64,000 bases of DNA, taken from the NCBI GenBank assembly GCA_049512075.1, contig JBEKXL010000002.1:96001-160000 (forward strand). The letters run 5' to 3'. The translations under genes and the position numbers were made by a program. Under the pieces are notes generated by a model that was given only the letters and a program-made list of their open reading frames with translations, was not told the origin of the DNA and searched no databases. Positions 32,010 to 55,530 of this stretch are shown piece by piece. The DNA is from Candidatus Bathyarchaeia archaeon (lineage in GTDB: Archaea; Thermoproteota; Bathyarchaeia; Bathyarchaeales; Bathycorpusculaceae). Position 1 is the stretch's first letter; each line of letters starts with the position of its first letter.

Positions 32010-32924
32010 ATGCATCTGATTAACTTCAAGGAATTGACTGGACAACAACTCGCTGAAATCGTCGACAAAGGTGTCGAAATCAAGCGTGACCCAAACAAGT
32101 ATCGGAAATCGTTAGATGGCAAGTCTCTGGCACTGATTTTTCAGAAGACCTCAACTAGGACACGGGTTTCCTTCGAGGTAGCCATGACTCAGCTCGGCGG
32201 TCACGGGTTATTTATCGACTGGAGGACGACGAACTTTGCCCTCGCAGACATAGGCGACGAAACTCAGTATCTCTCACGCAACGTTGACTGCATAATGGCC
32301 AGACTGCTGAAAAACGCAGATCTGCAAAGCATGGCCAGGAATTCACGCGTCGCTGTTATCAACGGCTGCGACGAGAAGTATCATCCCAGCCAGGCAATCG
32401 CCGATTTAATTACGGTCAAAGAGAACAAGGGCAACTTGAAGGGTGCCAAACTCGTGTACATAGGCATCCATAACAACGTTTGCAACTCGCTCGTGGAAGG
32501 CTGCACCAAGACGGGCGTCAGAATAACGACTGTGACGCCAATATTCAATGAGCCGGCACGTGACAAGGAGCTTCTGGAAGAGGCTCAGAGAACTGATCTT
32601 TGGGAAACCACGCTTGACGTGAAGGCAGCCGTCAAGGATGCAGACTTCGTTTACACTGACACTTGGGTGGATATGGAATTCTTCACGGACCCGAAATTCG
32701 CCGCGGAAAAGGAGAAACGTGTCAAGCTGATGATGCCCTACCAGTTGAACAAGGAATTGTTGAAGAACAGCAGCGCCTACGTGATGCACGACATGCCTAT
32801 CCACAGGGAATACGAAATAACCGCGGAAGTTATTGAATGTCCAAAATCCGTGATATACGAACAGAGCGAGAACAGACTGTACTCCGCAAAAGCAATTCTG
32901 CTGAAACTGTTAGACAAGTACTAG
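32010..32924 (+). CDS. argF: Ornithine carbamoyltransferase
   Basis: STRTR, HPSQ, YTDTWVDM, HDMP. Confidence 0.9.
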   Translation: MHLINFKELTGQQLAEIVDKGVEIKRDPNKYRKSLDGKSLALIFQKTSTRTRVSFEVAMTQLGGHGLFIDWRTTNFALADIGDETQYLSRNVDCIMARLLKNADLQSMARNSRVAVINGCDEKYHPSQAIADLITVKENKGNLKGAKLVYIGIHNNVCNSLVEGCTKTGVRITTVTPIFNEPARDKELLEEAQRTDLWETTLDVKAAVKDADFVYTDTWVDMEFFTDPKFAAEKEKRVKLMMPYQLNKELLKNSSAYVMHDMPIHREYEITAEVIECPKSVIYEQSENRLYSAKAILLKLLDKY

Positions 32925-46700: not shown

Positions 46701-47213
46701 TTATGCTATTCTTTTTCCGAACCGCGTTGGAGATGGACTGTTGTCGTAGACTTCATGCACGTTAACAACGTAAACGGGTCTTTTTCTCCTTGTCTCTTTC
46801 GTTAGCGCATAATGAAATGAATCATGAACCAAGTTTACAAACTCGCTATACGAGTCATTTTTGTGGATTTCAATCTTTCCGCGGATCTCAAAACTGATTG
46901 AAGGCGGCTGATAAAACAGCAGGCAAGTGCTCAGATTGTGCTGAACTATCTGCCACGTGTGCTTTGAAGAGTGCGGTTTCGACAGGGCAAGCTCGATTGT
47001 TGACATCTTGCTAAAATCCACACGTTCCTGAGCAATTTTGGGATCTTCAAAATACAAGTACTCAAGCAAAAGTGAAGCGCCTGTCCTCTGATATTCTCTC
47101 GAATTCTTCTCTATTTCGTCCCTAGTCTGATTCTTCCCGAACAACTTGTCTCCGTACTCGAGGTGTTCATCAAAAGCCCTTATCGCAGCATCCATGTATT
47201 TCTTTCTCGTCAC
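46701..47213 (-). pseudogene. C-terminal half of a gene split by the transposon (FMN-binding split-barrel-like)
   Basis: Begins VTRKKYM at the target duplication; contains HTW, LLFYQPPSISFEIRG, V.EVYDNS. Confidence 0.8.
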
Positions 47214-47294
47214 GGCTCTGTGAAGTCTCCGTTGGTTTTGGGGTTCATGTGAAAAACCGTTTGGTGAACAAAACGGATAAAGGTTCTAGTACTT

Positions 47295-47349
47295 GGTTCT
47301 GTCAAGTCTTCGGTTGATATGCCTTCTTGTGAAAAAGCGGTTGATAACT
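47295..47349 (+). repeat. Inner (second) left end of the transposon
   Basis: GGTTCTGTCAAGTCTTCGGTTG..TGTGAAAA.., 43/55 identical to the reverse complement of the outer right end. Confidence 0.8.
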
Positions 47350-47391
47350 GTTTTGCCTTAGTTATCAAGGCTCTTTCCAAGAGAAAATTCT

Positions 47392-50067
47392 CTAAAAGAT
47401 GCTTGGGAATATATCTGAAATTACTTCTTTCATCAGAGCTTCTTCTTTTGAGACTGATTCGGTAATCAGCGTGTTAATCTGTTGTTTCTTTGATTCGTAT
47501 TTCTCGACGATTTCCCGTTGCTTGTCAGTCTCGTAGGCAGGGATTGCCAATCGCCCGAGGTCATCTTCAGACATTCGCCCATACTGCCCTGTGAAAGTGG
47601 AATTAACAAGATAGTTGATGGGTTCTGATGTTAAAACGATTCTAAGGTACTTCCGCAGAACCTTTTCCTTCCCAGTGGTTGCGTCCTTCTTGGGTATGAG
47701 CTTATAGTATTCATCCGTAGCCCTAATTTCATCCAATTCGTCAGGTATGATTCCAACAATTCCATTCTTCAGTTGTATCCTTGAAACTACCAAATCTCCC
47801 TTACGGAAAATCTGAGTCTTTTTCAGTTTCGGGTCATGAGTTCCATCTATGACCCCGTACTCGACATCTCCCGACTTTGTAATGCGCTCTATATATTTGC
47901 TTCCAAATTGATTCACGTCTTCAGCGACCTCTTCTCTTTCGAAATTCACGACATTCCCGATTTTGTCTGCCTTGCCAGTCGCCATTATTATTTTCTCTAT
48001 TTCCTTCAGTCGAGGCGAATAGAACTTGGGGTCAAGTCGGTTATTGAATTGCTTTGTCTCTTCATCATGATAGTTTTCGAGATCTTCAGCTTTGCAAATA
48101 AAAGAATACTCGGAAAATTTCGTTTTCCTCCCCATACAAAAAGCACGATAATCCGCAAGAATGTCCGTCAGATTGTTCGGCATAACTCTCGTGCTCTTGC
48201 CATAGTTTTCGCCACAGTACTTTGCAATGCCCATAAAAATATCATTATCTTGAATTATACCGTCACCTTTCTTTTGAAGCAATAAAATGCTTGTGAAATT
48301 GTTTGCGTCTTGTTCCTTGAAAACTCCCCAAGGTAGTGAAACTATTGCTTTTATATTGAAGTTTCTTTTGATGAAATCCCTGACGTAACTTTCTCTTGGA
48401 TTATTGACTACGCCATCGTCTACTACTATTCCAAGGATTCCTCCGTTCGCCAATAGTTGGTAACAACGTTCGATAAACAGTATCTTAGAATCCCGCGAGC
48501 GGATGTCCTGTTCTCTTTTTGAGTATACGAACCGCCTTTGTTCTGGGTTGTATTTGTGAACGTGCGACAGCTCATACCCTTCGAGGGCATCGCGTCCATC
48601 TATGTCAATATGGCTTTTAGGCTTAACAGTAGAACTGAAGGGTGGATTTGTCAATGCAAGCATGAAGTAATTTTCTATGAGAATTGTCTTGAAGGCTTCT
48701 CTCTTCAATGAGTCGCCAAAATTTATTCCAGTGCTACCGTCCCCATGAACACTCATATTCATTGCTGCAGTCTTCGCAACATCCTCTTCATTATCAAAAC
48801 CTATGAGTAGTTCCTCACATAGTCTCCGCTTAGCTACCTTATGCTCCCTTTTGGCATCTTCATTCAGAAAGGTTTCTTCCCCTTTCCCTTGCTTGACCAT
48901 AAAGCGTGTTTTCAGTTCGTTATCAAGAATCGAGAAGACTGAAAGAAGGAAACCACCACTCCCGCAAGCTGGGTCAACACAGCGTACGCCAGATGCACCC
49001 CAAGAAACACCGACCATGCCCACTAGAAAATCTACAATCCTCCTTGGAGTAAAATATTGCCCGTTCTCCCCACGAAATATCGTACTAACAAAATTCTCGT
49101 AAACGTGAGCAACTGGTGGATAGACTTTCCCGTCTTCATCAACCATGAAGATTCTTTCTAGTTTTTTCACAATTCTGTTTATAGTTACGTCATCGAGTAG
49201 TAACTTATCTTCGGTCTTGAAAATTCTTACATTTTTTTGGCGGTAATGGGTTTTTATATCCTCGAAGAGAGTACCCCCGATATAGTTTTCCCCTTCTTCG
49301 AGAACCTTTGTGTAGGTAAAGCGGTTCTCCTTACCTTCTCTCTCACGTCTGTCTTCGTACAGCTTAATGAAGAGAAGCTTATTCATCTCAGCGAAAGCAC
49401 GGATACCAGTCTTCGATTCACTTGCTTCTCGCATCTCATCTTGACAGTTAAAAAGAATACGTTCAAACTCTTTCTGGTTGAGCATTGGCGCTCTGAATAA
49501 GGGAGGCTGGCTGACCCGTTTTCCCAATGGAATGATATTTTTCTTTCCCAGCACTTTTTCTACAATTTCAAATTTGTCAAAAATCTCCCGCTCATTCACT
49601 GGAGAGAATGGAAGCTCCTGTCGCGTAAGCGTTTCATAAACATGAGTTTCTTCAACATTGGTAGCGACGTAATACTTCGGGCGAGGTTTGAGTTCATTGG
49701 CTTGTGAATAATCGTAGGCCTGTCCTTCCGCATTCTCGGTAGCGGTTTTCAAAGGATGACCGTAACTCTTGACTTCGATTACAATAACAGGGTCGCCGTT
49801 CTTGCGGACTATGACATCGCTCTGACCCCCAATTCTATTGACCTGCCTCCCTTCGTTCTTCGTAAGATGTTGTTTAACATCAATATCAGTGATGGCATAA
49901 CCTAAAGCGTTTCGAAGGAACGGGACAAGAAAATGGGTTATGGAAGCATCTTCTGATGGAGATAGATTCAATGCTTTTTCCATTGTAGTTTTGTTGTCAC
50001 ACCATAATTGCCCTTCAGCCTCTGGGATTCCGAACCATTCACACATGCGTTTAGCTATTCCGGTCAA
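47392..50067 (-). CDS. Fused restriction-modification enzyme (nuclease + N6-adenine MTase + TRD; type IIG-like)
   Basis: SDVIV..IEVK..QAYDY..ATN; GQYFTPR, DPACGSGGFL, NPPF; C-terminal HsdS-like domain. Confidence 0.9.
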   Translation of the reverse strand: MTGIAKRMCEWFGIPEAEGQLWCDNKTTMEKALNLSPSEDASITHFLVPFLRNALGYAITDIDVKQHLTKNEGRQVNRIGGQSDVIVRKNGDPVIVIEVKSYGHPLKTATENAEGQAYDYSQANELKPRPKYYVATNVEETHVYETLTRQELPFSPVNEREIFDKFEIVEKVLGKKNIIPLGKRVSQPPLFRAPMLNQKEFERILFNCQDEMREASESKTGIRAFAEMNKLLFIKLYEDRREREGKENRFTYTKVLEEGENYIGGTLFEDIKTHYRQKNVRIFKTEDKLLLDDVTINRIVKKLERIFMVDEDGKVYPPVAHVYENFVSTIFRGENGQYFTPRRIVDFLVGMVGVSWGASGVRCVDPACGSGGFLLSVFSILDNELKTRFMVKQGKGEETFLNEDAKREHKVAKRRLCEELLIGFDNEEDVAKTAAMNMSVHGDGSTGINFGDSLKREAFKTILIENYFMLALTNPPFSSTVKPKSHIDIDGRDALEGYELSHVHKYNPEQRRFVYSKREQDIRSRDSKILFIERCYQLLANGGILGIVVDDGVVNNPRESYVRDFIKRNFNIKAIVSLPWGVFKEQDANNFTSILLLQKKGDGIIQDNDIFMGIAKYCGENYGKSTRVMPNNLTDILADYRAFCMGRKTKFSEYSFICKAEDLENYHDEETKQFNNRLDPKFYSPRLKEIEKIIMATGKADKIGNVVNFEREEVAEDVNQFGSKYIERITKSGDVEYGVIDGTHDPKLKKTQIFRKGDLVVSRIQLKNGIVGIIPDELDEIRATDEYYKLIPKKDATTGKEKVLRKYLRIVLTSEPINYLVNSTFTGQYGRMSEDDLGRLAIPAYETDKQREIVEKYESKKQQINTLITESVSKEEALMKEVISDIFPSIF

Positions 50068-50264
50068 TTTGCTCCCTCAGTACCTTTCTCTGTATTTTTC
50101 TTCTCTTGAACAACCAGTTGCCCATCTTTGACGTTAATTTCAAGTTCTTGCCCACCTTTCCACCCCAACTGGTTGATGGCATCGTCGGGGATTATAATCA
50201 CGTGCTTATAGTGTCGCTTGTCCTTATATTTGTAAGCGAGTTGTTTTTGGAGTTTAGCTTTCAT
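50064..50264 (-). CDS. AbrB/MazE-like DNA-binding protein
   Basis: IIIP..INQLGWKGGQELEINVKDGQLVV. Confidence 0.8.
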   Translation of the reverse strand: MKAKLQKQLAYKYKDKRHYKHVIIIPDDAINQLGWKGGQELEINVKDGQLVVQEKKNTEKGTEGAN

Positions 50265-50410
50265 TTTTGGGATTCCTCAAATTTGTCAATCAGGAAGGAA
50301 ACAACTTCGTGGTAAGGCACTTCCTTTTTCTTTTTCTGTTCTGCCAAGTAGCGAGCGATTTTATCCAATCTTTCCTCGTCTTTTTGCTCGATTCTGATGG
50401 GTTTCGTCAG
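50261..50410 (-). CDS. 49-aa ribbon-helix-helix-like protein, CTG start (not in ORF track)
   Basis: (M)TKPIRIEQKDEERLDKIARYLAEQKKKKEVPYHEVVSFLIDKFEESQK; its TGA overlaps the AbrB ATG. Confidence 0.65.
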   Translation of the reverse strand: MTKPIRIEQKDEERLDKIARYLAEQKKKKEVPYHEVVSFLIDKFEESQK

Positions 50411-50430
50411 CGTTGTTTTCCTTCTTCTTT

Positions 50431-50498
50431 GTTTACAGCGTTTACTTCGTTAACTATGTTAACTTGTTTACAATGTGAACGCTGTTTACGCTGTACAC
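50431..50498. promoter_or_regulatory. Eight GTNNAC hexamers at 9-bp period
   Basis: Starts at 50431, 50440, 50449, 50458, 50466, 50475, 50484, 50493. Confidence 0.8.
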
Positions 50499-50506
50499 AG
50501 GGTTAA

Positions 50507-50603
50507 TGGTACCATAAAACTATTTAACATTTATGGTGTTTGTGGTACCACAACGCTTATATTATTGTGGTACCATAACAATTATCAGTGTAGTGTGGTA
50601 CCA
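50507..50603. promoter_or_regulatory. Four TGGTACCA palindromes across the transposase promoter and start
   Basis: At 50507, 50543, 50568, 50596; the second extends to TTGTGGTACCACAA. Confidence 0.8.
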
Positions 50604-51739
50604 TGATGACAATAGAGGAACTGGAAAATCTCCGAGAGCTAAGAGGCTCAGAGATTGTTCGTAAAAAAGGAAATCAAATTAACCGCATAGATGATTGCCT
50701 TTACACCGTTAAGTCTCAGTCTGGAAACGGTGAGTATGCTGTTTGTCAAGTTGACAATGAATTAGTCTGCGAATGTCCAGACTTCCAATTTCGCAATGTT
50801 AAATGCAAACACATTTTTGCAGTAGAGTTTTCTAAGTCGCTAAGAGAAGCAACTCAGAGAATTGCTCCAATAGAAAACCTTTCAGCATGCATCTATTGTA
50901 ATTCTTCTAATTTGATGAAATATGGCTTACGAAAAAACAAAACTGGAAATCTCCAAGTATTCTATTGCCGAGATTGCCACAAATACTTCACTATCAACAT
51001 CGGTTTTGAGAAAATGAAGCACAACCCTCAAGCAATCACAAGCGCAATGCAACTATACTTCTCAGGTGAGAGCCTAAGAAATACTCAGAAGTCGCTTAAG
51101 CTCTTAGGAGTCGAAGTTTCGTACAGATCAATCCTAAACTGGATAAAAAAATACGTTAGTCTCATGAAAAACTATGTTGAAACCATTACTCCAAACGTAA
51201 GCGACACATGGAGAGCAGACGAAATATACATCAAGGTAAAAGGTGACATGAAGTACCTTTTCGCTATGATGGATGATGAAACACGGTTTTGGATTGCTCA
51301 GGAAGTTGCAGAGACTAAATACACTCATGATGCACGGAAACTTTTGCAGATGTCCAAACAGTTGATGGGTAAGAAACCTATGACCTTCATTACTGACGGT
51401 CTTCCAGCGTACCATGATGCATACAAGAAGGAGTTTTGGACACAGAAGAAAGAAACTCGAACAGAACACGTTAGGCATATCACTTTGAGAGGAGATCACA
51501 ACAATAACAAAATGGAACGCATGAACGGAGAAGTACGAGACAGAGAAAAGACTATGAGAGGATTAAAAACCAAAGACACAGCGATTCTCTCCGGTTATCA
51601 GATTTTCCACAACTACATCCGAGGACATGAAGCACTTGACGGTAAGACTCCTAGTGAAGCTTGTGGAATAACGGTAGAAGGAAAAAACAAATGGCTAACC
51701 CTAATCCAAAATGCTAAACTATCATCAGTCGAAAAATAG
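50603..51739 (+). CDS. IS6-family DDE transposase with N-terminal SWIM finger and zinc ribbon
   Basis: CECPDF..CKH; CIYC..CRDC; HTH; WRADE, ITDG, NN.MER. Confidence 0.9.
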   Translation: MMTIEELENLRELRGSEIVRKKGNQINRIDDCLYTVKSQSGNGEYAVCQVDNELVCECPDFQFRNVKCKHIFAVEFSKSLREATQRIAPIENLSACIYCNSSNLMKYGLRKNKTGNLQVFYCRDCHKYFTINIGFEKMKHNPQAITSAMQLYFSGESLRNTQKSLKLLGVEVSYRSILNWIKKYVSLMKNYVETITPNVSDTWRADEIYIKVKGDMKYLFAMMDDETRFWIAQEVAETKYTHDARKLLQMSKQLMGKKPMTFITDGLPAYHDAYKKEFWTQKKETRTEHVRHITLRGDHNNNKMERMNGEVRDREKTMRGLKTKDTAILSGYQIFHNYIRGHEALDGKTPSEACGITVEGKNKWLTLIQNAKLSSVEK

Positions 51740-51822
51740 ATTGACAATATTGTCTGTCGCCAACAGACACACTTAAATAGTTAAATAGTATGCCGCCCTA
51801 AGTCTATTGGGAGAAAAGAGAG

Positions 51823-52128
51823 ATGATGAAGGTAAATTTGTACAGTATGTTTTGCACTGATACTCTTAGGCATAGAGAGACTGCTAGGAATATTCTAGAG
51901 AAGCTGTCCAAAACGTCAAAAAACGACGTAGTCATAATTGACTTTGATAAAATAGAGTTTGCCTCACGGTCTTTTCTTCATGAACTTATGAGTTGCCTTG
52001 CGGATAGAAAGGTTGAGTTTAGGAACCAGAATGAAGAAGTCGCAAGAATGACCGATGTTATTTCGAAAAGCATTGAGGCTTACTCTGAAGAAAGACGCGG
52101 AAAACACTGTATAGCAACTGCACAGTAG
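51823..52128 (+). CDS. STAS-like (DUF4325-type) protein
   Basis: VIIDFDKIEFASRSFLHEL. Confidence 0.75.
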   Translation: MMKVNLYSMFCTDTLRHRETARNILEKLSKTSKNDVVIIDFDKIEFASRSFLHELMSCLADRKVEFRNQNEEVARMTDVISKSIEAYSEERRGKHCIATAQ

Positions 52129-52130
52129 GT

Positions 52131-52964
52131 TTATCGCAGGTATTTATAAAATTCAATCTTTTTCAAATTGAAATTAATCCCTACCAAAGCGCCCTGCCAC
52201 TGCGATTTCAATTTCCACTCTTTTCTTTCCCCCAACTTATCATAGATGAGTGATTTCCCTGACATTATTACCAGCTTTCCACCATAGCCGTGGATGAACA
52301 TTTTGGCTATACTAGGGATACCTGTTCCTCTGAGATTTTCCTTTTTAGAAGATTTCCCAACCAATGCGTTAATGATGGCTTGTCTATCACTTTTTACTTC
52401 ATACTTAGTCCCTTTGTATGAAGCCTTATACCCAATGCCACAATCTGCAATTACAATCTCGCAGGTTCTATGTGGCCTTTCCCAAAATTGAGCCAACAAC
52501 CAATAATGATCTATGTTCGCATGTTCATTGACATTGTTCACCAATTCGCTAGTTAGATGTTTCAAGCTTAGCTTGAATGAGGATGAGTATTCGTCTGAAC
52601 TTGCCATTTCCAAAATCAAGTCTTCATACTTGCCCAAGACCTTATTCTGTTCAATCGGCGGTAGCCTTGTTATTGGCAGATAACGCTTTTCATCACTTGG
52701 TAATTCCTCAAAACCATTTGGAAAACCGATTGTACTAAGATAGCTTTGGACATCATGGTCTTTTTCTGAACAAGTCAGATTCATTCTGTTATGAGAAGCA
52801 AATACGGCCAAAGGAAGTATTGAAAGTGGTGTAACAAAATCTGCTCTACACAAATCGGTATAAGGAATGTCGTTGCGTAAAGCTGAATTTAATTCCTCCA
52901 AATTCTGAACAAGTTCATCAATGCGTTCAGATATTCCGTAGTGATGTCTTATCTCCATGGACAA
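52131..52964 (-). CDS. GHKL/histidine-kinase-like ATPase (anti-sigma-like)
   Basis: SELVNNVNEHA (N box), IADCGIG (G1), RGTGI (G2), WQGALV. Confidence 0.8.
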   Translation of the reverse strand: MSMEIRHHYGISERIDELVQNLEELNSALRNDIPYTDLCRADFVTPLSILPLAVFASHNRMNLTCSEKDHDVQSYLSTIGFPNGFEELPSDEKRYLPITRLPPIEQNKVLGKYEDLILEMASSDEYSSSFKLSLKHLTSELVNNVNEHANIDHYWLLAQFWERPHRTCEIVIADCGIGYKASYKGTKYEVKSDRQAIINALVGKSSKKENLRGTGIPSIAKMFIHGYGGKLVIMSGKSLIYDKLGERKEWKLKSQWQGALVGINFNLKKIEFYKYLR

Positions 52965-53061
52965 AAGCTTTGACAGAAGTATGATATAACATTTGGTTTA
53001 CTCTAAAATCTGATTTTTGCAGAGGTCGTGAGACTTTACAGGAACAAAAACAGAAATTTTA

Positions 53062-53271
53062 TCATGAGTGCCAGCGTTTTCTTCTCCATCCTTTCTTGCG
53101 GACCATGAATTTGACATCAGAACCCTTGTACGCCTTGTTCAATTCCCTAGCTTCTTTCTCAGCTTTCTTCTTCGTCCTGAAACGTTCTCCAGCAACAACA
53201 CGAATAGGACTCTTTCCCTTTCGTCTAACAACAAGCCACTTCTTAGGGTCAGGTCGCCTTTGATAACCCAA
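53062..53271 (-). CDS. Small basic hypothetical protein
   Basis: Very K/R-rich; FRTKKKAEKEAREL helix. Confidence 0.45.
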   Translation of the reverse strand: MGYQRRPDPKKWLVVRRKGKSPIRVVAGERFRTKKKAEKEARELNKAYKGSDVKFMVRKKGWRRKRWHS

Positions 53272-53385
53272 AAGGATTCACAGAAGAAAAATCTGAAAAC
53301 TACATAGGGCTCCTTTTGAGTTTAGCGTGCATTTGAAACAAAAAGCTTAACAGTGTTCCATGCGCAATGATTGTGAGTTGGTATT

Positions 53386-53904
53386 ATGAAAGATGTTGAG
53401 CTGAGATTGATTTCTGAGTTGATGACAAACAGTTGTAGGAGCGATAGACAGCTTGCCAAGGCATTGGGAGTTTCTCAGCCCACAGTGTCACGAACAAAAG
53501 CAAAGCTGGAAAAAGAAGGCTACATCTCTGAACACACGATTATCCCCAATTTCAACAAAATAGGTTATCACCTGTTTGCATTAACTTTTTTCTCGTGGAA
53601 ACAAGGTATCAGCAAGAGCGATAAGGAAAAGGCAATCAAATACGCTCAAGAGAGGGCTTCCTTTCTCCCATCTAACATAGTTCTCGTTGAAAGAGGAATC
53701 GGGATGAACTACGACGCATTCATGGGGTCATTCCATAAGGACTACTCATCTTACAGGGAACTCATGAATGAAATGAAAGAGAGTCAATACACAGATGTGA
53801 ATAGGATGGACAGCTTCATTGTCGACCTTACCGACAAATTCCACTATCGAACCTTAACCTTCTCAACCCTTGCCAAACACCTAATAGAAACAAACCAAAA
53901 GTAA
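53386..53904 (+). CDS. Lrp/AsnC-family transcriptional regulator
   Basis: SDRQLAKALGVSQPTVSR..LEKEGYI..IPNFNKIGY. Confidence 0.88.
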   Translation: MKDVELRLISELMTNSCRSDRQLAKALGVSQPTVSRTKAKLEKEGYISEHTIIPNFNKIGYHLFALTFFSWKQGISKSDKEKAIKYAQERASFLPSNIVLVERGIGMNYDAFMGSFHKDYSSYRELMNEMKESQYTDVNRMDSFIVDLTDKFHYRTLTFSTLAKHLIETNQK

Positions 53905-54063
53905 ACTCGTAACTGTGATAGGACTCTTTCCCTTCCGCTTTGCAATAAGCCACTTTCTTTTTAGCCAATTATGCGAATAAGTCGTATGGGCTCCCAACAG
54001 AAAAATCAACATGGGCTCGTTCGTGGTGAAATGTTAAAATAGTCTTGAAGTTCATTTCCATTT

Positions 54064-54246
54064 ATGTATCCAATAGTGGCCAGAAAACTCATAATAAGTG
54101 CCATTCTATCAGTCTTGGCCTTTTATCTGTTCGTTCTAGGGGCGAGTGCTTACCAAGGACTAGACGGGGAGATGGTCAGAGCTGTCTACTTCTCCGGAGC
54201 AGCGATAGTGTTTGCAATTGCCATTATTCCTTGGATGACCAAATAA
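54064..54246 (+). CDS. Small 2-TM protein
   Basis: Two hydrophobic helices, ATG start. Confidence 0.5.
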   Translation: MYPIVARKLIISAILSVLAFYLFVLGASAYQGLDGEMVRAVYFSGAAIVFAIAIIPWMTK

Positions 54247-54689
54247 TGATACTCGCTAGAGTGAGACCACACAAATAACTTAACGGTATCTAGTATGTGG
54301 GCTCGTTTTACGATAGGTCAGCAGACGAAAAGTAACAAGGAGATCAAGCAGACGAAGAAGTACCAGAACCTCGCCTACCACCCGACCTGTAACACGAAGG
54401 TTAGCCACTCTGATGATAGACCAGAACCAGAAAAATCGTCATGAGTGCACGCGAAACTACTTTAAGATTACGTGCACTTGTTTTTGCAAGCGTTCTTGAA
54501 CCTCTACGGTTTCTCTGATTTCTTTGTTCTTGGCCTCTATCAATTCATGATAGTGCTGTTTCAATAGTTGTAGCTTCCCTGCGTCTTGAAGGTCTACTTT
54601 GCTCAATCTCTCACATTTGATTAAGGAACTAGATAATGTTGACCGATTCTTAAAAAGAATATGCAACAGTGTAGAACACTAAAACAATG

Positions 54690-54744
54690 AGTCATCCCCC
54701 GACAGTTAACAAGGAAACAAACCAAACAAAGAGTTTACAGAACC
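54690..54744 (-). repeat. Inner (second) right end of the transposon
   Basis: ACCAAACAAAGAGTTTACAGAACC is 21/24 identical to the outer end 55283-55306; similarity extends colinearly to 54690. Confidence 0.75.
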
Positions 54745-54890
54745 TGTTTTTTGGAAAATTAGAGACATAGTTGTATGGAAAGTCGTGAATAAGCAGTTTG
54801 GGTTTGGGAGCAGAAATCAGGTCAGTTAAGCCTTATCTCGGATACATAAGAGGTTTATACTGAGAACTTGCAATAGTTGAAGACACACGA

Positions 54891-55199
54891 ATGAAGGGGT
54901 CCAAGATGGCACGTTCTAAACTTGAGACGTACGTTGACATTCTCAAAGTGTTGGCTCATCGTGGACCCTTGAAGCTAACGCATATAATGTATAAAGCAAA
55001 CGTGAATGGTAGCATTCTGAGAGAGTATCTGGACTTCCTGCTCAAACAGAATCTTGTTGAAGAAAGAAACGTGGGGAAAAGTAGAACCGTCTTTGCTGTA
55101 ACTCAAAAAGGCATAACGGTGCTCAAGAACTTCAGGGAACTGCAACAAATATTGCCAATCATTGAAGAAACAAGAAATATGATCCCAACACCTATTTGA
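54891..55199 (+). CDS. Winged-helix transcriptional regulator (HTH_45-like)
   Basis: RSKLE..DIL..LTHIMYKANVN..YLDFL..VTQKG. Confidence 0.88.
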   Translation: MKGSKMARSKLETYVDILKVLAHRGPLKLTHIMYKANVNGSILREYLDFLLKQNLVEERNVGKSRTVFAVTQKGITVLKNFRELQQILPIIEETRNMIPTPI

Positions 55200-55306
55200 T
55201 TTCGCTTAAGTTCAGGGAATCATCAACCGACTTTTTACGTGGGCTCGTTTTAGTCACCAAACGAATTTTCACAACAAAACCTACCAAACGAAGACTTCAC
55301 AGAACC

Positions 55307-55530
55307 CTCGTCACGTAGCCCACCCCAACGATTTTGGCATTGACGAATATCTGACCGTCTTCTTTCTGAAAAGCGGTGCATAATGCAGGATTGTGGCGCG
55401 TGCTTTCCAAGAAGAAGCGGTCCGCATCCACTATCGAATGGCGATTAACCAGGTCGAGCAACGCTTTTCTTCTTGGAAAATAGTTCCATCGCAAGAAACT
55501 TTCGGGAAGAGCTACCGTGAGTCTTCAACA
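55307..55530 (-). pseudogene. N-terminal half of the gene split by the transposon
   Basis: LPESFLRWNYFPRR..TRHNPALCT..NAKIVGVGYVTR joins KKYM.. at 47205 in frame across the TSD. Confidence 0.8.

Follow-up and report, generated by a model that had tools for sequence, protein, structure and literature searches.

A probable 8.1-kb unit transposon of the IS6 group, with a restriction-modification system as cargo, in the genome of a Bathyarchaeia archaeon

The DNA examined here, referred to as the window, is a 64-kb stretch of the genome of Candidatus Bathyarchaeia archaeon (GenBank assembly GCA_049512075.1, contig JBEKXL010000002.1), and positions 47214-55306 of it in all likelihood constitute an autonomous cargo transposon of 8,093 bp, which belongs to an archaeal, zinc-finger-bearing branch of the IS6 group and was inserted as one unit into a chromosomal gene of 238 amino acids (aa). 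The element had been proposed from the letters of the window, and that proposal, the original prediction, is taken up below together with the results that bear on it. The window's own genome is called G000, and contig numbers (C) refer to this genome unless prefixed with G002, a genome of the same genus. The coordinates of the individual features are collected in Table 1.

Junctions, host gene, and empty site

The element is bounded by an exact direct repeat of 8 bp, CTCGTCAC, at 47206-47213 and 55307-55314, just as predicted. The left junction (47206-47214) reads ...TTTCT CTCGTCAC followed by GGCTCTGTGAAGTCTCCG..., and the right junction (55306-55314) reads ...CGAAGACTTCACAGAACC followed by CTCGTCAC GTAGCC.... 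Inward from the duplication the ends start with GGCTCTGTGAAGTCT at 47214 and, on the reverse strand, with GGTTCTGTGAAGTCT at 55306, and they form terminal inverted repeats of ~54-62 bp that are 76% alike, which agrees with the ~61 bp first proposed (aligned with one gap, 42/55 columns are identical over 54 nt and 48/63 over 62 nt). The tips, GGCTCTGTG and GGTTCTGTG, carry the GG and the cTGTt motif that characterize IS6 ends. With up to two mismatches allowed, the 15-nt tip motif occurs four times in the window compared to 0.39 times expected, all four lying within the element, and none of 100 shuffles reached this number. No Rfam family reached its gathering score between 46500 and 56000.

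The interrupted gene was traced by searching its C-terminal piece of 170 aa against 41 genomes (G000 and 40 relatives), five of which gave a match. In G002 the match is 94% identical and lies inside an intact open reading frame (ORF) of 238 aa reading ...FVNAKIVGVGYVTRKKYMDAAIRAFDEH..., flanked by the same thioredoxin-like and KaiC-like neighbors as in the window, and an uninterrupted homologue of 238 aa is likewise present in the more distant G025. Removal of the element had been said to rejoin the NAKIVGVGYVTR piece to the KKYMDAAIRAF piece in frame, and G002 encodes exactly ...VGVGYVTRKKYMDAAIRAF... in its intact ORF. In a three-way DNA alignment G002 holds one GTGACGAG with both flanks matching; to the left of it G002 runs into the window's right junction and to the right of it into the window's left junction. 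Because this 8-mer stands only once in G002 between matching flanks, the 8,093 bp and one copy of the 8-mer are an insertion, and a full-length homologue of the rejoined gene and a clean empty site thus both exist. The 238-aa gene itself matched no Pfam or NCBIfam family and gave nothing with PADLOC. In no fewer than three other genomes (including L014:1297-2013) it is likewise found next to the gene of a KaiC-like ATPase.

Both junctions are crossed by contigs from two public sequencing runs, which may however be the source of the assembly and are hence not independent of it. X1 contig 1 (5,126 nt) bridges the left junction and X1 contig 8 the right one, each without differences, and X2 contig 9 reaches 52 nt across the left junction. 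Other contigs in the same runs depart from the window at 55306-55308 into five different flanks and at ~47217 into one more, and contigs that share just the terminal 51 nt join at 55255-55256. These departures at the tips fix the boundary of the element, and the five flanks show that the same end type is present in several other contexts in those communities. A joint from 54723 to 55256, also seen in run contigs, was set aside, as its sides are just 22-34 nt long and it is best read as repeats of other elements.

The same observations bear on the idea that the 8,093 bp are not a transposon, having arrived instead as an island by site-specific or homologous recombination, or being a chimera of the assembly. 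No integrase or recombinase family matched any of the element's ORFs that were scanned, the hallmark of DDE transposition is present, with inverted terminal repeats and an 8-bp duplication of a sequence found once in the empty site, and the same architecture recurs in 37 further copies in other assemblies. Nothing was found in favor of such an origin, which we consider extremely improbable and keep in view because the runs supporting the junctions may be those from which the assembly was made.

Transposase and related elements

The DDE transposase, with its SWIM finger and zinc ribbon, is the only one in the element and sits in its middle (left tip 3,389 bp away, right tip 3,567 bp away), so that the original description (more than 3 kb from either end) was accurate. 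Pfam PF13610 (DDE_Tnp_IS240) scores 62.1 bits (cut-off 27, E 8e-17), Pfam SWIM scores 24.9 bits at residues 48-77 (cut-off 19.6), and NCBIfam zinc-ribbon domains match residues 96-130. Among NCBIfam models the best is IS6 (NF033587) with 120 bits (E 1e-34, curated cut-off 125), the runner-up being IS1 with 52 bits (E 6e-14). When 72,556 plasmid records were searched, 22/25 of the best matches listed carried an IS6-family or IS6-like annotation or lay in unannotated DNA, and the strongest per residue were ISCpe7-type entries from Clostridium (30-31% identity over residues 130-365, E ~1e-22). An alignment of five archaeal relatives and one ISCpe7 transposase (A3) has D206 (in WRADE), D265 (ITDG), and E305 (NNNKME) as invariant residues, as well as C96, C99, C122, and C125, ISCpe7 included, while R312 stands at +7 from the catalytic E, where ISCpe7 has K. 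The SWIM finger (residues 48-77) is without a counterpart in ISCpe7. Judged by these sequence comparisons, the transposase matches IS6 best.

The element does not stand alone and belongs to a large archaeal group. In a search of public genomes 386 stretches fit the search patterns and 345 of them encode a relative of the transposase; the best 80 loci of these were examined, and their titles are mostly Bathyarchaeia and Nitrososphaeria, with a few Asgard archaea (Atabeyarchaeum, Sifarchaeum) and one Methanoperedens. A second, motif-free search required the transposase gene to be flanked on either side by the same exact 8-mer, together with at least 22/30 identical terminal bases in inverted orientation. 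Such a pair surrounds 37/85 transposase copies, and 31/55 of those with at least 5 kb on both flanks, compared to 0/85 in a control with the downstream flank reversed. All 37 repeat pairs start with GG and the elements that they enclose measure 2,332-7,638 bp (median 3,629 bp), making the window element, at 8,093 bp, the largest of the set. Tight, unrelated inverted repeats around the transposase gene, the finding that had been named as damaging to the original prediction, occur in none of the 85 copies examined; the relatives lie instead inside GG-tipped repeat pairs of the same type as those of the window element, 2.3-7.6 kb apart and with exact 8-bp duplications.

Within the window's own genome there are 12 transposase matches, of which three are full length and one is of the window's transposase type. 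Four more bounded elements are present there, three of them with an exact 8-bp duplication (Table 1). One of these, L020, has its transposase gene split in two by a TGA or a frameshift, and its cargo comprises a weak PIN-like protein and several ORFs without a Pfam match. The transposase is found at E <=1e-30 in 14/41 genomes of the same set of G000 and its relatives. G002 has a sibling element at C14:2421-10058 (7,638 bp, duplication TCTAATTG) with an 89% identical transposase, at another locus than the empty site described above. For this sibling no clean reciprocal empty site was found in G000, the right flank being syntenic (96%, from 58 bp beyond the tip) and the left not. The 7.6-kb sibling carries a paralogue of the TATA-binding protein (TBP) as cargo (L023:2961-3521, also in G002:C14; Pfam TBP, E 1.3e-29). 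Contigs with the titles of bacterial metagenome-assembled genomes (Saccharibacteria, Pirellulales, Limnocylindrales) also hold transposases 65-87% identical to the window's (L026, L036, L043, L052, L071), and these titles reflect either mis-binning or transfer between domains.

Two-part ends, relic ends, and order of insertion

The two tandem sub-sites per end that had been proposed are confirmed by alignment, those of the window being TGTGAAGTCTYCGTTKGGT and TGTGAAAAnnCGTTTGGT. Sub-sites within an end co-vary. In a set of 34 elements (68 ends), the 8-mer that occupies positions 17-24 of an end recurs further in at >=7/8 in 43/68 ends, compared to 207/1,319 when the 8-mers of other elements are used, and the offset between the two sub-sites is 26-28 nt in 46/68. 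End subtype in turn follows the relatedness of the transposase: all four elements with transposases 87-89% identical to the window's (L023-L026) have its outer TGTGAAGTC/T...CGTTTGG end type, whereas transposases at most 75% identical go with other end subtypes. As the sub-sites co-vary and the subtype follows transposase relatedness, there is good indirect evidence that each end would offer two binding sites to the transposase and that the resident enzyme would have the outer ends as its cognate pair. A third conserved word, AAAACGAGCCCAC(A/G)T, stands just inside both sub-sites in several ends of different subtypes (window 55232-55250 and 54294-54310; G000:C22 ~32915).

Transposition could then proceed as follows. 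At either end, transposase molecules would bind both sub-sites, which stand ~27 bp from each other, and the ends would be paired, with several protomers occupying the four sub-sites, and the paired ends would be joined to a target cut with an 8-bp stagger. A replicative cointegrate resolved by host recombination is possible by analogy with IS26, and cut-and-paste is equally compatible, since one flanked copy does not separate the two.

Internally the element is mosaic and contains relic ends that belong to other subtypes. A hidden Markov model (HMM) was made from the 68 ends, among them the window's two outer ends, whose own scores are therefore by construction, and was used with nhmmer on the whole genome. 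Three further ends, at 47295, 54370, and 54744, lie within the element and had escaped the original prediction. Each has the polarity of the nearby outer end, none has a duplication partner, and the three belong to three other subtypes; those at 47295 and 54370 are also two-part, with CGGTTGA and CGTCTGC, respectively, each present twice. Relic ends of the same polarity may reflect either another member that inserted inside the repeat and was then partly lost, or the use of a distal end with the capture of flanking DNA. Before insertion at the present site the cargo would have been put together out of parts of other members of the family, perhaps with host DNA as well, and such assembly would explain the three relic ends. 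One segment of the cargo has a close counterpart elsewhere in the genome. The Lrp segment at 53255-53904 is 96% identical to C22:32947-33596 (the Lrp protein copy is 95% identical), and the C22 copy abuts a solo end of the window's type (tip 32854), itself standing after three tandem ends. This array (G000:C22:32343-33596, L021) has four tandem, plus-strand, end-like sequences with tips at 32343, 32414, 32502, and 32854, and no transposase was found near these ends of the same polarity.

Members of the family also occur side by side. Among the 80 loci there are six facing pairs of neighboring tips, five of which are separated by exactly 8 bp, meaning that elements often land in the 8 bp that flank the tip of another member. 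This suggests that insertion is targeted to the duplication beside a resident end. The pairs at 8 bp are L026:1648/1657, L030:8908/8917 and 12419/12428, L050:13051/13060, and L073:7780/7789. At L030, L045, and L094 the same 8-mer flanks both neighboring elements.

The relic ends also allow the present structure to be read as two nested insertions, in which an outer element of ~640 bp (47214-47294 plus 54745-55306, with the winged-helix gene only) came first and a 7.45-kb element (47295-54744) entered later, just inside the left repeat, in which case the 8.1 kb would at no time have moved together. In polarity the inner ends 47295(+) and 54744(-) do agree with the outer ends, the offset of 81 bp is what a 73-bp end and a further 8 bp would give, offsets of like size are present at C12 (95 bp) and C22 (71 and 88 bp), and the empty site alone does not separate one step from two. 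However, TAGTACTT, the 8 bp before 47295, is found nowhere else in the element and has no match after 54744 or 54370; the two inner ends are of different subtypes and form no matched pair. Moreover, the resident transposase groups with elements of the outer end type (4/4 at 87-89%) and would, under nesting, ride with non-cognate ends. We regard such a history as highly unlikely and favor insertion of the whole 8,093 bp as one unit.

Cargo, control, and relation to known systems

Beside the transposase gene the element holds 8-10 further ORFs. The largest encodes the fused restriction-modification enzyme of the original prediction, which stands: HSDR_N matches residues 84-151 (28.9 bits, cut-off 25.1), N6_Mtase residues 320-664 (E 1.5e-26), and Specificity_I residues 744-881 at the C-terminus (E 7e-8). 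This protein of 891 aa is thus predicted to unite nuclease, methylase, and target recognition in one polypeptide, which is the domain set of a Type IIG enzyme, and a homologue 60% identical to it is found in the L025 element.

Restriction-modification systems are also the most frequent recognizable cargo in the family. Among 150/159 ORFs from 36 related elements (the nine shortest were dropped), restriction or methylase families were found at E <=1e-5 in 9/36 elements (L023, L024, L025, L026, L043, L045, L047, L049, L051). The original claim of a unit-transposon form of IS6 that spreads defense cargo is supported and can be widened to the large archaeal group described above. The four closest elements each carry a different restriction system, namely a split HSDR_N plus N6_Mtase protein with a specificity subunit (L023), a BsaWI-type nuclease with an N6_N4 methylase (L024), an 894-aa enzyme 60% identical to the window's (L025), and an 840-aa enzyme 28% identical to it (L026). 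Other recognizable cargo includes Fic/DOC, GNAT, NOV_C, a proteasome-like protein, and the TBP paralogue, and the majority of the scanned ORFs match no Pfam family.

The smaller genes were predicted with varying success. The Lrp and winged-helix genes were recovered as such, with matches to an Lrp-type HTH and to the HTH_45 winged helix. In the proposed STAS/GHKL pair the STAS-like member is upheld by DUF4325, and its 277-aa partner is GHKL-like by a lead from the ESM Atlas, where its neighbors are 'ATP-binding' clusters with HATPase_c in 10-18% of members, one cluster being fused to DUF4325. Putative GHKL motifs are also present in the 277-aa sequence. The two genes are found paired again in L051 and L045. 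The predicted AbrB regulator is an AbrB/MazE-like protein with a marginal score (23.1 bits, cut-off 24.7), and the RHH regulator named with it is an open frame (50261-50440, minus strand) that we read as RHH-like, a reading that no tool confirmed; no canonical start codon covers its putative strand, for which reason the frame may be a remnant. Homologues of the 69-aa basic protein occur at the loci of six relatives, L045 (twice), L023, L026, L069, L050, and L099, and also on C32, C4, and C12 of the window's genome. Pfam, NCBIfam, and PADLOC gave nothing for the 277-aa, 69-aa, and 60-aa ORFs. The winged-helix protein has chromosomal paralogues, 34-79% identical, on C10, C14, C1, C4, and C20. 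At G000:C1:261226-262209 paralogues of the winged-helix gene (61%) and of the Lrp-type gene (47%) are neighbors, and the right part of the element may on this ground derive from a host gene pair.

Table 1. Positions of the features of the element and its host gene in the window, and of four further bounded elements in the same genome
Feature	Position	Strand	Remarks
Host gene, C-terminal part	46701..47213	-	Reads (VTR)KKYMDAAIRAF... at left junction
Target-site duplication, left copy	47206..47213		CTCGTCAC; single copy in G002 empty site
Outer left terminal inverted repeat	47214..47275	+	Two sub-sites, TGTGAAGTCTCCGTTGGT and TGTGAAAAACCGTTTGGT; type of the transposase-downstream end of L023-L026
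Relic inner left end	47295..47350	+	CGGTTGA subtype; nhmmer E 8e-9; not in model
Single-chain restriction-modification enzyme (Type IIG-like), 891 aa	47392..50067	-	HSDR_N nuclease-like, N6-adenine methylase, and specificity domains
AbrB/MazE-like DNA-binding protein, 66 aa	50064..50264	-	Marginal scores; stop overlaps start of restriction gene
Frame upstream of AbrB with RHH-like reading, maybe remnant	50261..50368	-	No canonical start codon covers putative strand
Four TGGTACCA palindromes, likely operator array	50507..50603		Within 97 bp; last overlaps transposase ATG
Transposase, 378 aa	50603..51739	+	SWIM finger, Cys4 zinc ribbon, IS6-type DDE domain (D206, D265, E305, R312)
DUF4325 (STAS-like) protein, 101 aa	51823..52128	+	Pfam
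Probable GHKL-type ATPase, 277 aa	52131..52964	-	No Pfam hit
Very basic protein, 69 aa	53062..53271	-	No Pfam hit
Regulator with Lrp/AsnC-type HTH, 172 aa	53386..53904	+	Pfam/NCBIfam
Relic inner right end	54308..54370	-	GGTTCTGGTAC / CGTCTGC subtype; nhmmer E 7e-6
ORF between two relic ends, 69 aa, doubtful coding	54457..54666	-	One homologue, in L030
Relic inner right end	54688..54744	-	TGTAAAC subtype; nhmmer E 8.5e-8
Winged-helix protein (HTH_45, Sso10a-like), 102 aa	54891..55199	+	Pfam/NCBIfam
Outer right terminal inverted repeat	55245..55306	-	Two sub-sites
Target-site duplication, right copy	55307..55314		CTCGTCAC; single copy in G002 empty site
Host gene, N-terminal part	55307..55494	-	ORF 55297-55494(-) ends ...NAKIVGVGYVTR at right junction
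Further element, 3,171 bp	C12:48747-51917		Duplication AGTTGCAA
Further element, 2,607 bp	C14:53462-56068		Duplication GTCGCGCG
Further element (L020), 5,819 bp	C1:204565-210383		Duplication GGTATTCC; transposase gene broken
Further element, 1,049 bp	C5:9664-10712		Duplication matches 7/8

Between the AbrB-restriction operon and the transposase gene lies an array of palindromes that, like the relic ends, the original prediction did not mention. The window has five TGGTACCA palindromes compared to 0.49 expected, and four of the five are in this array. The AbrB-like protein probably binds the four palindromes and would thereby control both the AbrB-restriction operon and the divergent transposase gene. 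AbrB homologues stand directly upstream of, and divergent from, the transposase gene in 8/10 matching loci, among them the 2.8-kb element L054, and AbrB therefore looks like a core regulator rather than the cargo gene as which it had first been listed. One relative, L047, resembles the window further. Its AbrB is the most similar one (64%), four TGGTACCA sites precede its transposase gene at short distance, and the genes are arranged as in the window, with restriction (-), AbrB (-), and transposase (+). The transposase of L047 is just 64% identical to the window's, and its ends are of another subtype. As a feature of the family the array was rejected, given that only 1/85 relatives (L047) has at least two copies upstream of the transposase gene. 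The AbrB-operator-restriction set is therefore a portable module and no constant of the family.

Several points weigh against the reading of the element as an autonomous transposon inserted as one unit. In L023-L026 a distance of 73-563 bp separates the transposase gene from the end that corresponds to the window's left one, toward which the gene is oriented, whereas in the window the distance is 3.4 kb and the gene is oriented away from that end; the element is therefore rearranged and may not be competent to move. Its left tip is GGC where the four close relatives all have GGT, the NCBIfam IS6 score falls five bits under the curated cut-off, and the two runs that bridge the junctions may have supplied the assembly. 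No empty site or excised joint (47213 to 55315) was present in the contigs of four public runs, an absence that is neutral because contigs drop rare variants, and no transposition has been observed. The scarcity of the palindrome array among the relatives belongs here as well, and the binding of the palindromes by AbrB is something that we infer.

Some of these points would also fit an element that transposed once and is now immobile or movable only in trans, its genes being kept for the benefit of the host or not at all: the layout is rearranged compared to close relatives, the left tip is GGC, the RHH-like frame is without a start codon, and the genome has a single copy of the transposase type. 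On the other hand, the transposase still has an unbroken ORF of 378 aa and conserved catalytic residues, and community contigs connect this end type to five other flanks. In addition, the two copies of the duplication match exactly, and both parts of the host gene remain open reading frames with 94% identity to the G002 orthologue, observations that point to a recent event. An inert remnant of this kind is rather unlikely in our judgment, and an autonomous transposon remains the preferred reading.

How the element relates to described systems can be assessed from its transposase, its ends, and its layout. According to the accessible text of a 2021 review, the IS6 family is homogeneous at ~800 bp, with seven members of 1,230-1,460 bp and three of 1,710-1,760 bp, has inverted repeats of 15-20 bp with GG tips and cTGTt, makes 8-bp duplications, and includes a clade h with a zinc finger; a single member, ISDsp3, is listed there with a passenger gene (PMC7986276). 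The archaeal and the long clostridial groups have been argued to be just distantly related to true IS6/IS26, and the same source states that experiments on archaeal or long members do not exist (PMC6807381). With IS26, IS257, and IS6100 the window element shares the DDE domain of the IS6/IS240 type, the 8-bp duplication, the GG/cTGT tips, and K/R at E+7, in as far as the accessible text of the review describes them (PMC7986276). It differs in its size of 8.1 kb (2.3-7.6 kb in the rest of the group) compared to 0.7-0.9 kb and a maximum of 1.76 kb in IS6, and in its two-part repeats of ~54-62 bp compared to 15-20 bp, the IS6 values again being those of the accessible review text (PMC7986276). 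It also has many passenger genes inside a single element, where IS6 has one ORF and moves cargo between two copies, and its transposase is <30% identical, with SWIM and zinc-ribbon domains in addition. The element thus has the transposase type, duplication, and tips of IS6 and departs from that family in length, repeat length, and the single-ORF layout. It would work like an IS6-type element but appears to be a unit (tIS-type) transposon.

The nearest annotated relatives are of the ISCpe7 type, which score best (~30% identity, E ~1e-22). The long zinc-finger branch, given as clade h (PMC7986276) and clade VII (PMC6807381) in the accessible portions of these sources, shares with the window the N-terminal Cys4 zinc ribbon before the HTH and DDE domains. 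ISCpe7-type elements are, however, 1.2-1.3 kb long, free of cargo, and found in Clostridia, and the 1.23-1.46 kb that delimit clade h are far exceeded by the window element; its transposase has the additional SWIM finger, is without the second ribbon insert of ISCpe7, and belongs to archaeal hosts. ISDsp3 is a precedent in layout, as both have one IS-type transposase and passenger genes inside one inverted-repeat pair, the arrangement that defines a tIS in the accessible review text (PMC7986276). However, ISDsp3 has one hypothetical passenger gene in 1,456 bp, as the available part of the source records (PMC6807381), whereas the window element has 8-10 genes including a complete restriction system and stands in a whole lineage with variable cargo.

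Pseudo-compound IS26 transposons likewise move accessory genes by an IS6-type transposase. The window element differs from compound and pseudo-compound forms in having no second transposase copy, the other copies of the genome being on other contigs, and in carrying its cargo within one inverted pair of ends and a single 8-bp duplication. Tn3-family elements are unit transposons with multi-site ends and defense cargo, and the target duplication of Tn7-like and Tn3-family elements is 5 bp. Cargo-carrying Tn7-like transposons (PMC8649781) share with the window element the unit form, multi-site ends, and defense systems as variable cargo. The transposases of both Tn7-like and Tn3-family elements are unrelated to that of the window, and these bacterial elements have extra core proteins (resolvase, TnsBC). 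In the literature searched (on the IS6 family, archaea, and cargo; supplements and ISfinder lay outside this search) we found no description of the group or of its architecture, and the available part of a 2026 survey of archaeal insertion sequences has no mention of Bathyarchae*, passenger, or SWIM (PMC13343696).

Taken further, these results might fit together as a separate, undescribed, family-level group of archaeal IS6-derived unit transposons, in which long two-site ends attract insertions, elements grow by accretion and swap defense modules, and an AbrB controller with a shared operator couples the expression of restriction and transposase. We offer this combined picture tentatively and place it somewhat on the doubtful side. 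If it were true, the restriction system and the transposon would form one selfish unit.

Overall, IS6/IS26 elements serve as the textbook example of insertion sequences whose cargo moves only in arrays of two copies, and the archaeal lineage does the opposite, with one transposase and one pair of long two-site ends carrying several kb of exchangeable genes. The lineage spans Bathyarchaeia and Nitrososphaeria as well as some Asgard and Methanoperedens contigs. The documentation of the copy in the window is unusually good, since a sister species has both the empty site and, at another locus, a sibling element, and since relic ends would record the assembly of this copy. The natural variants in end subtype and transposase clade may be useful in understanding how IS6-type transposases read their ends, and the group would provide a concrete vehicle for the spread of defense genes in uncultivated archaea, in which few mobile elements have been characterized.

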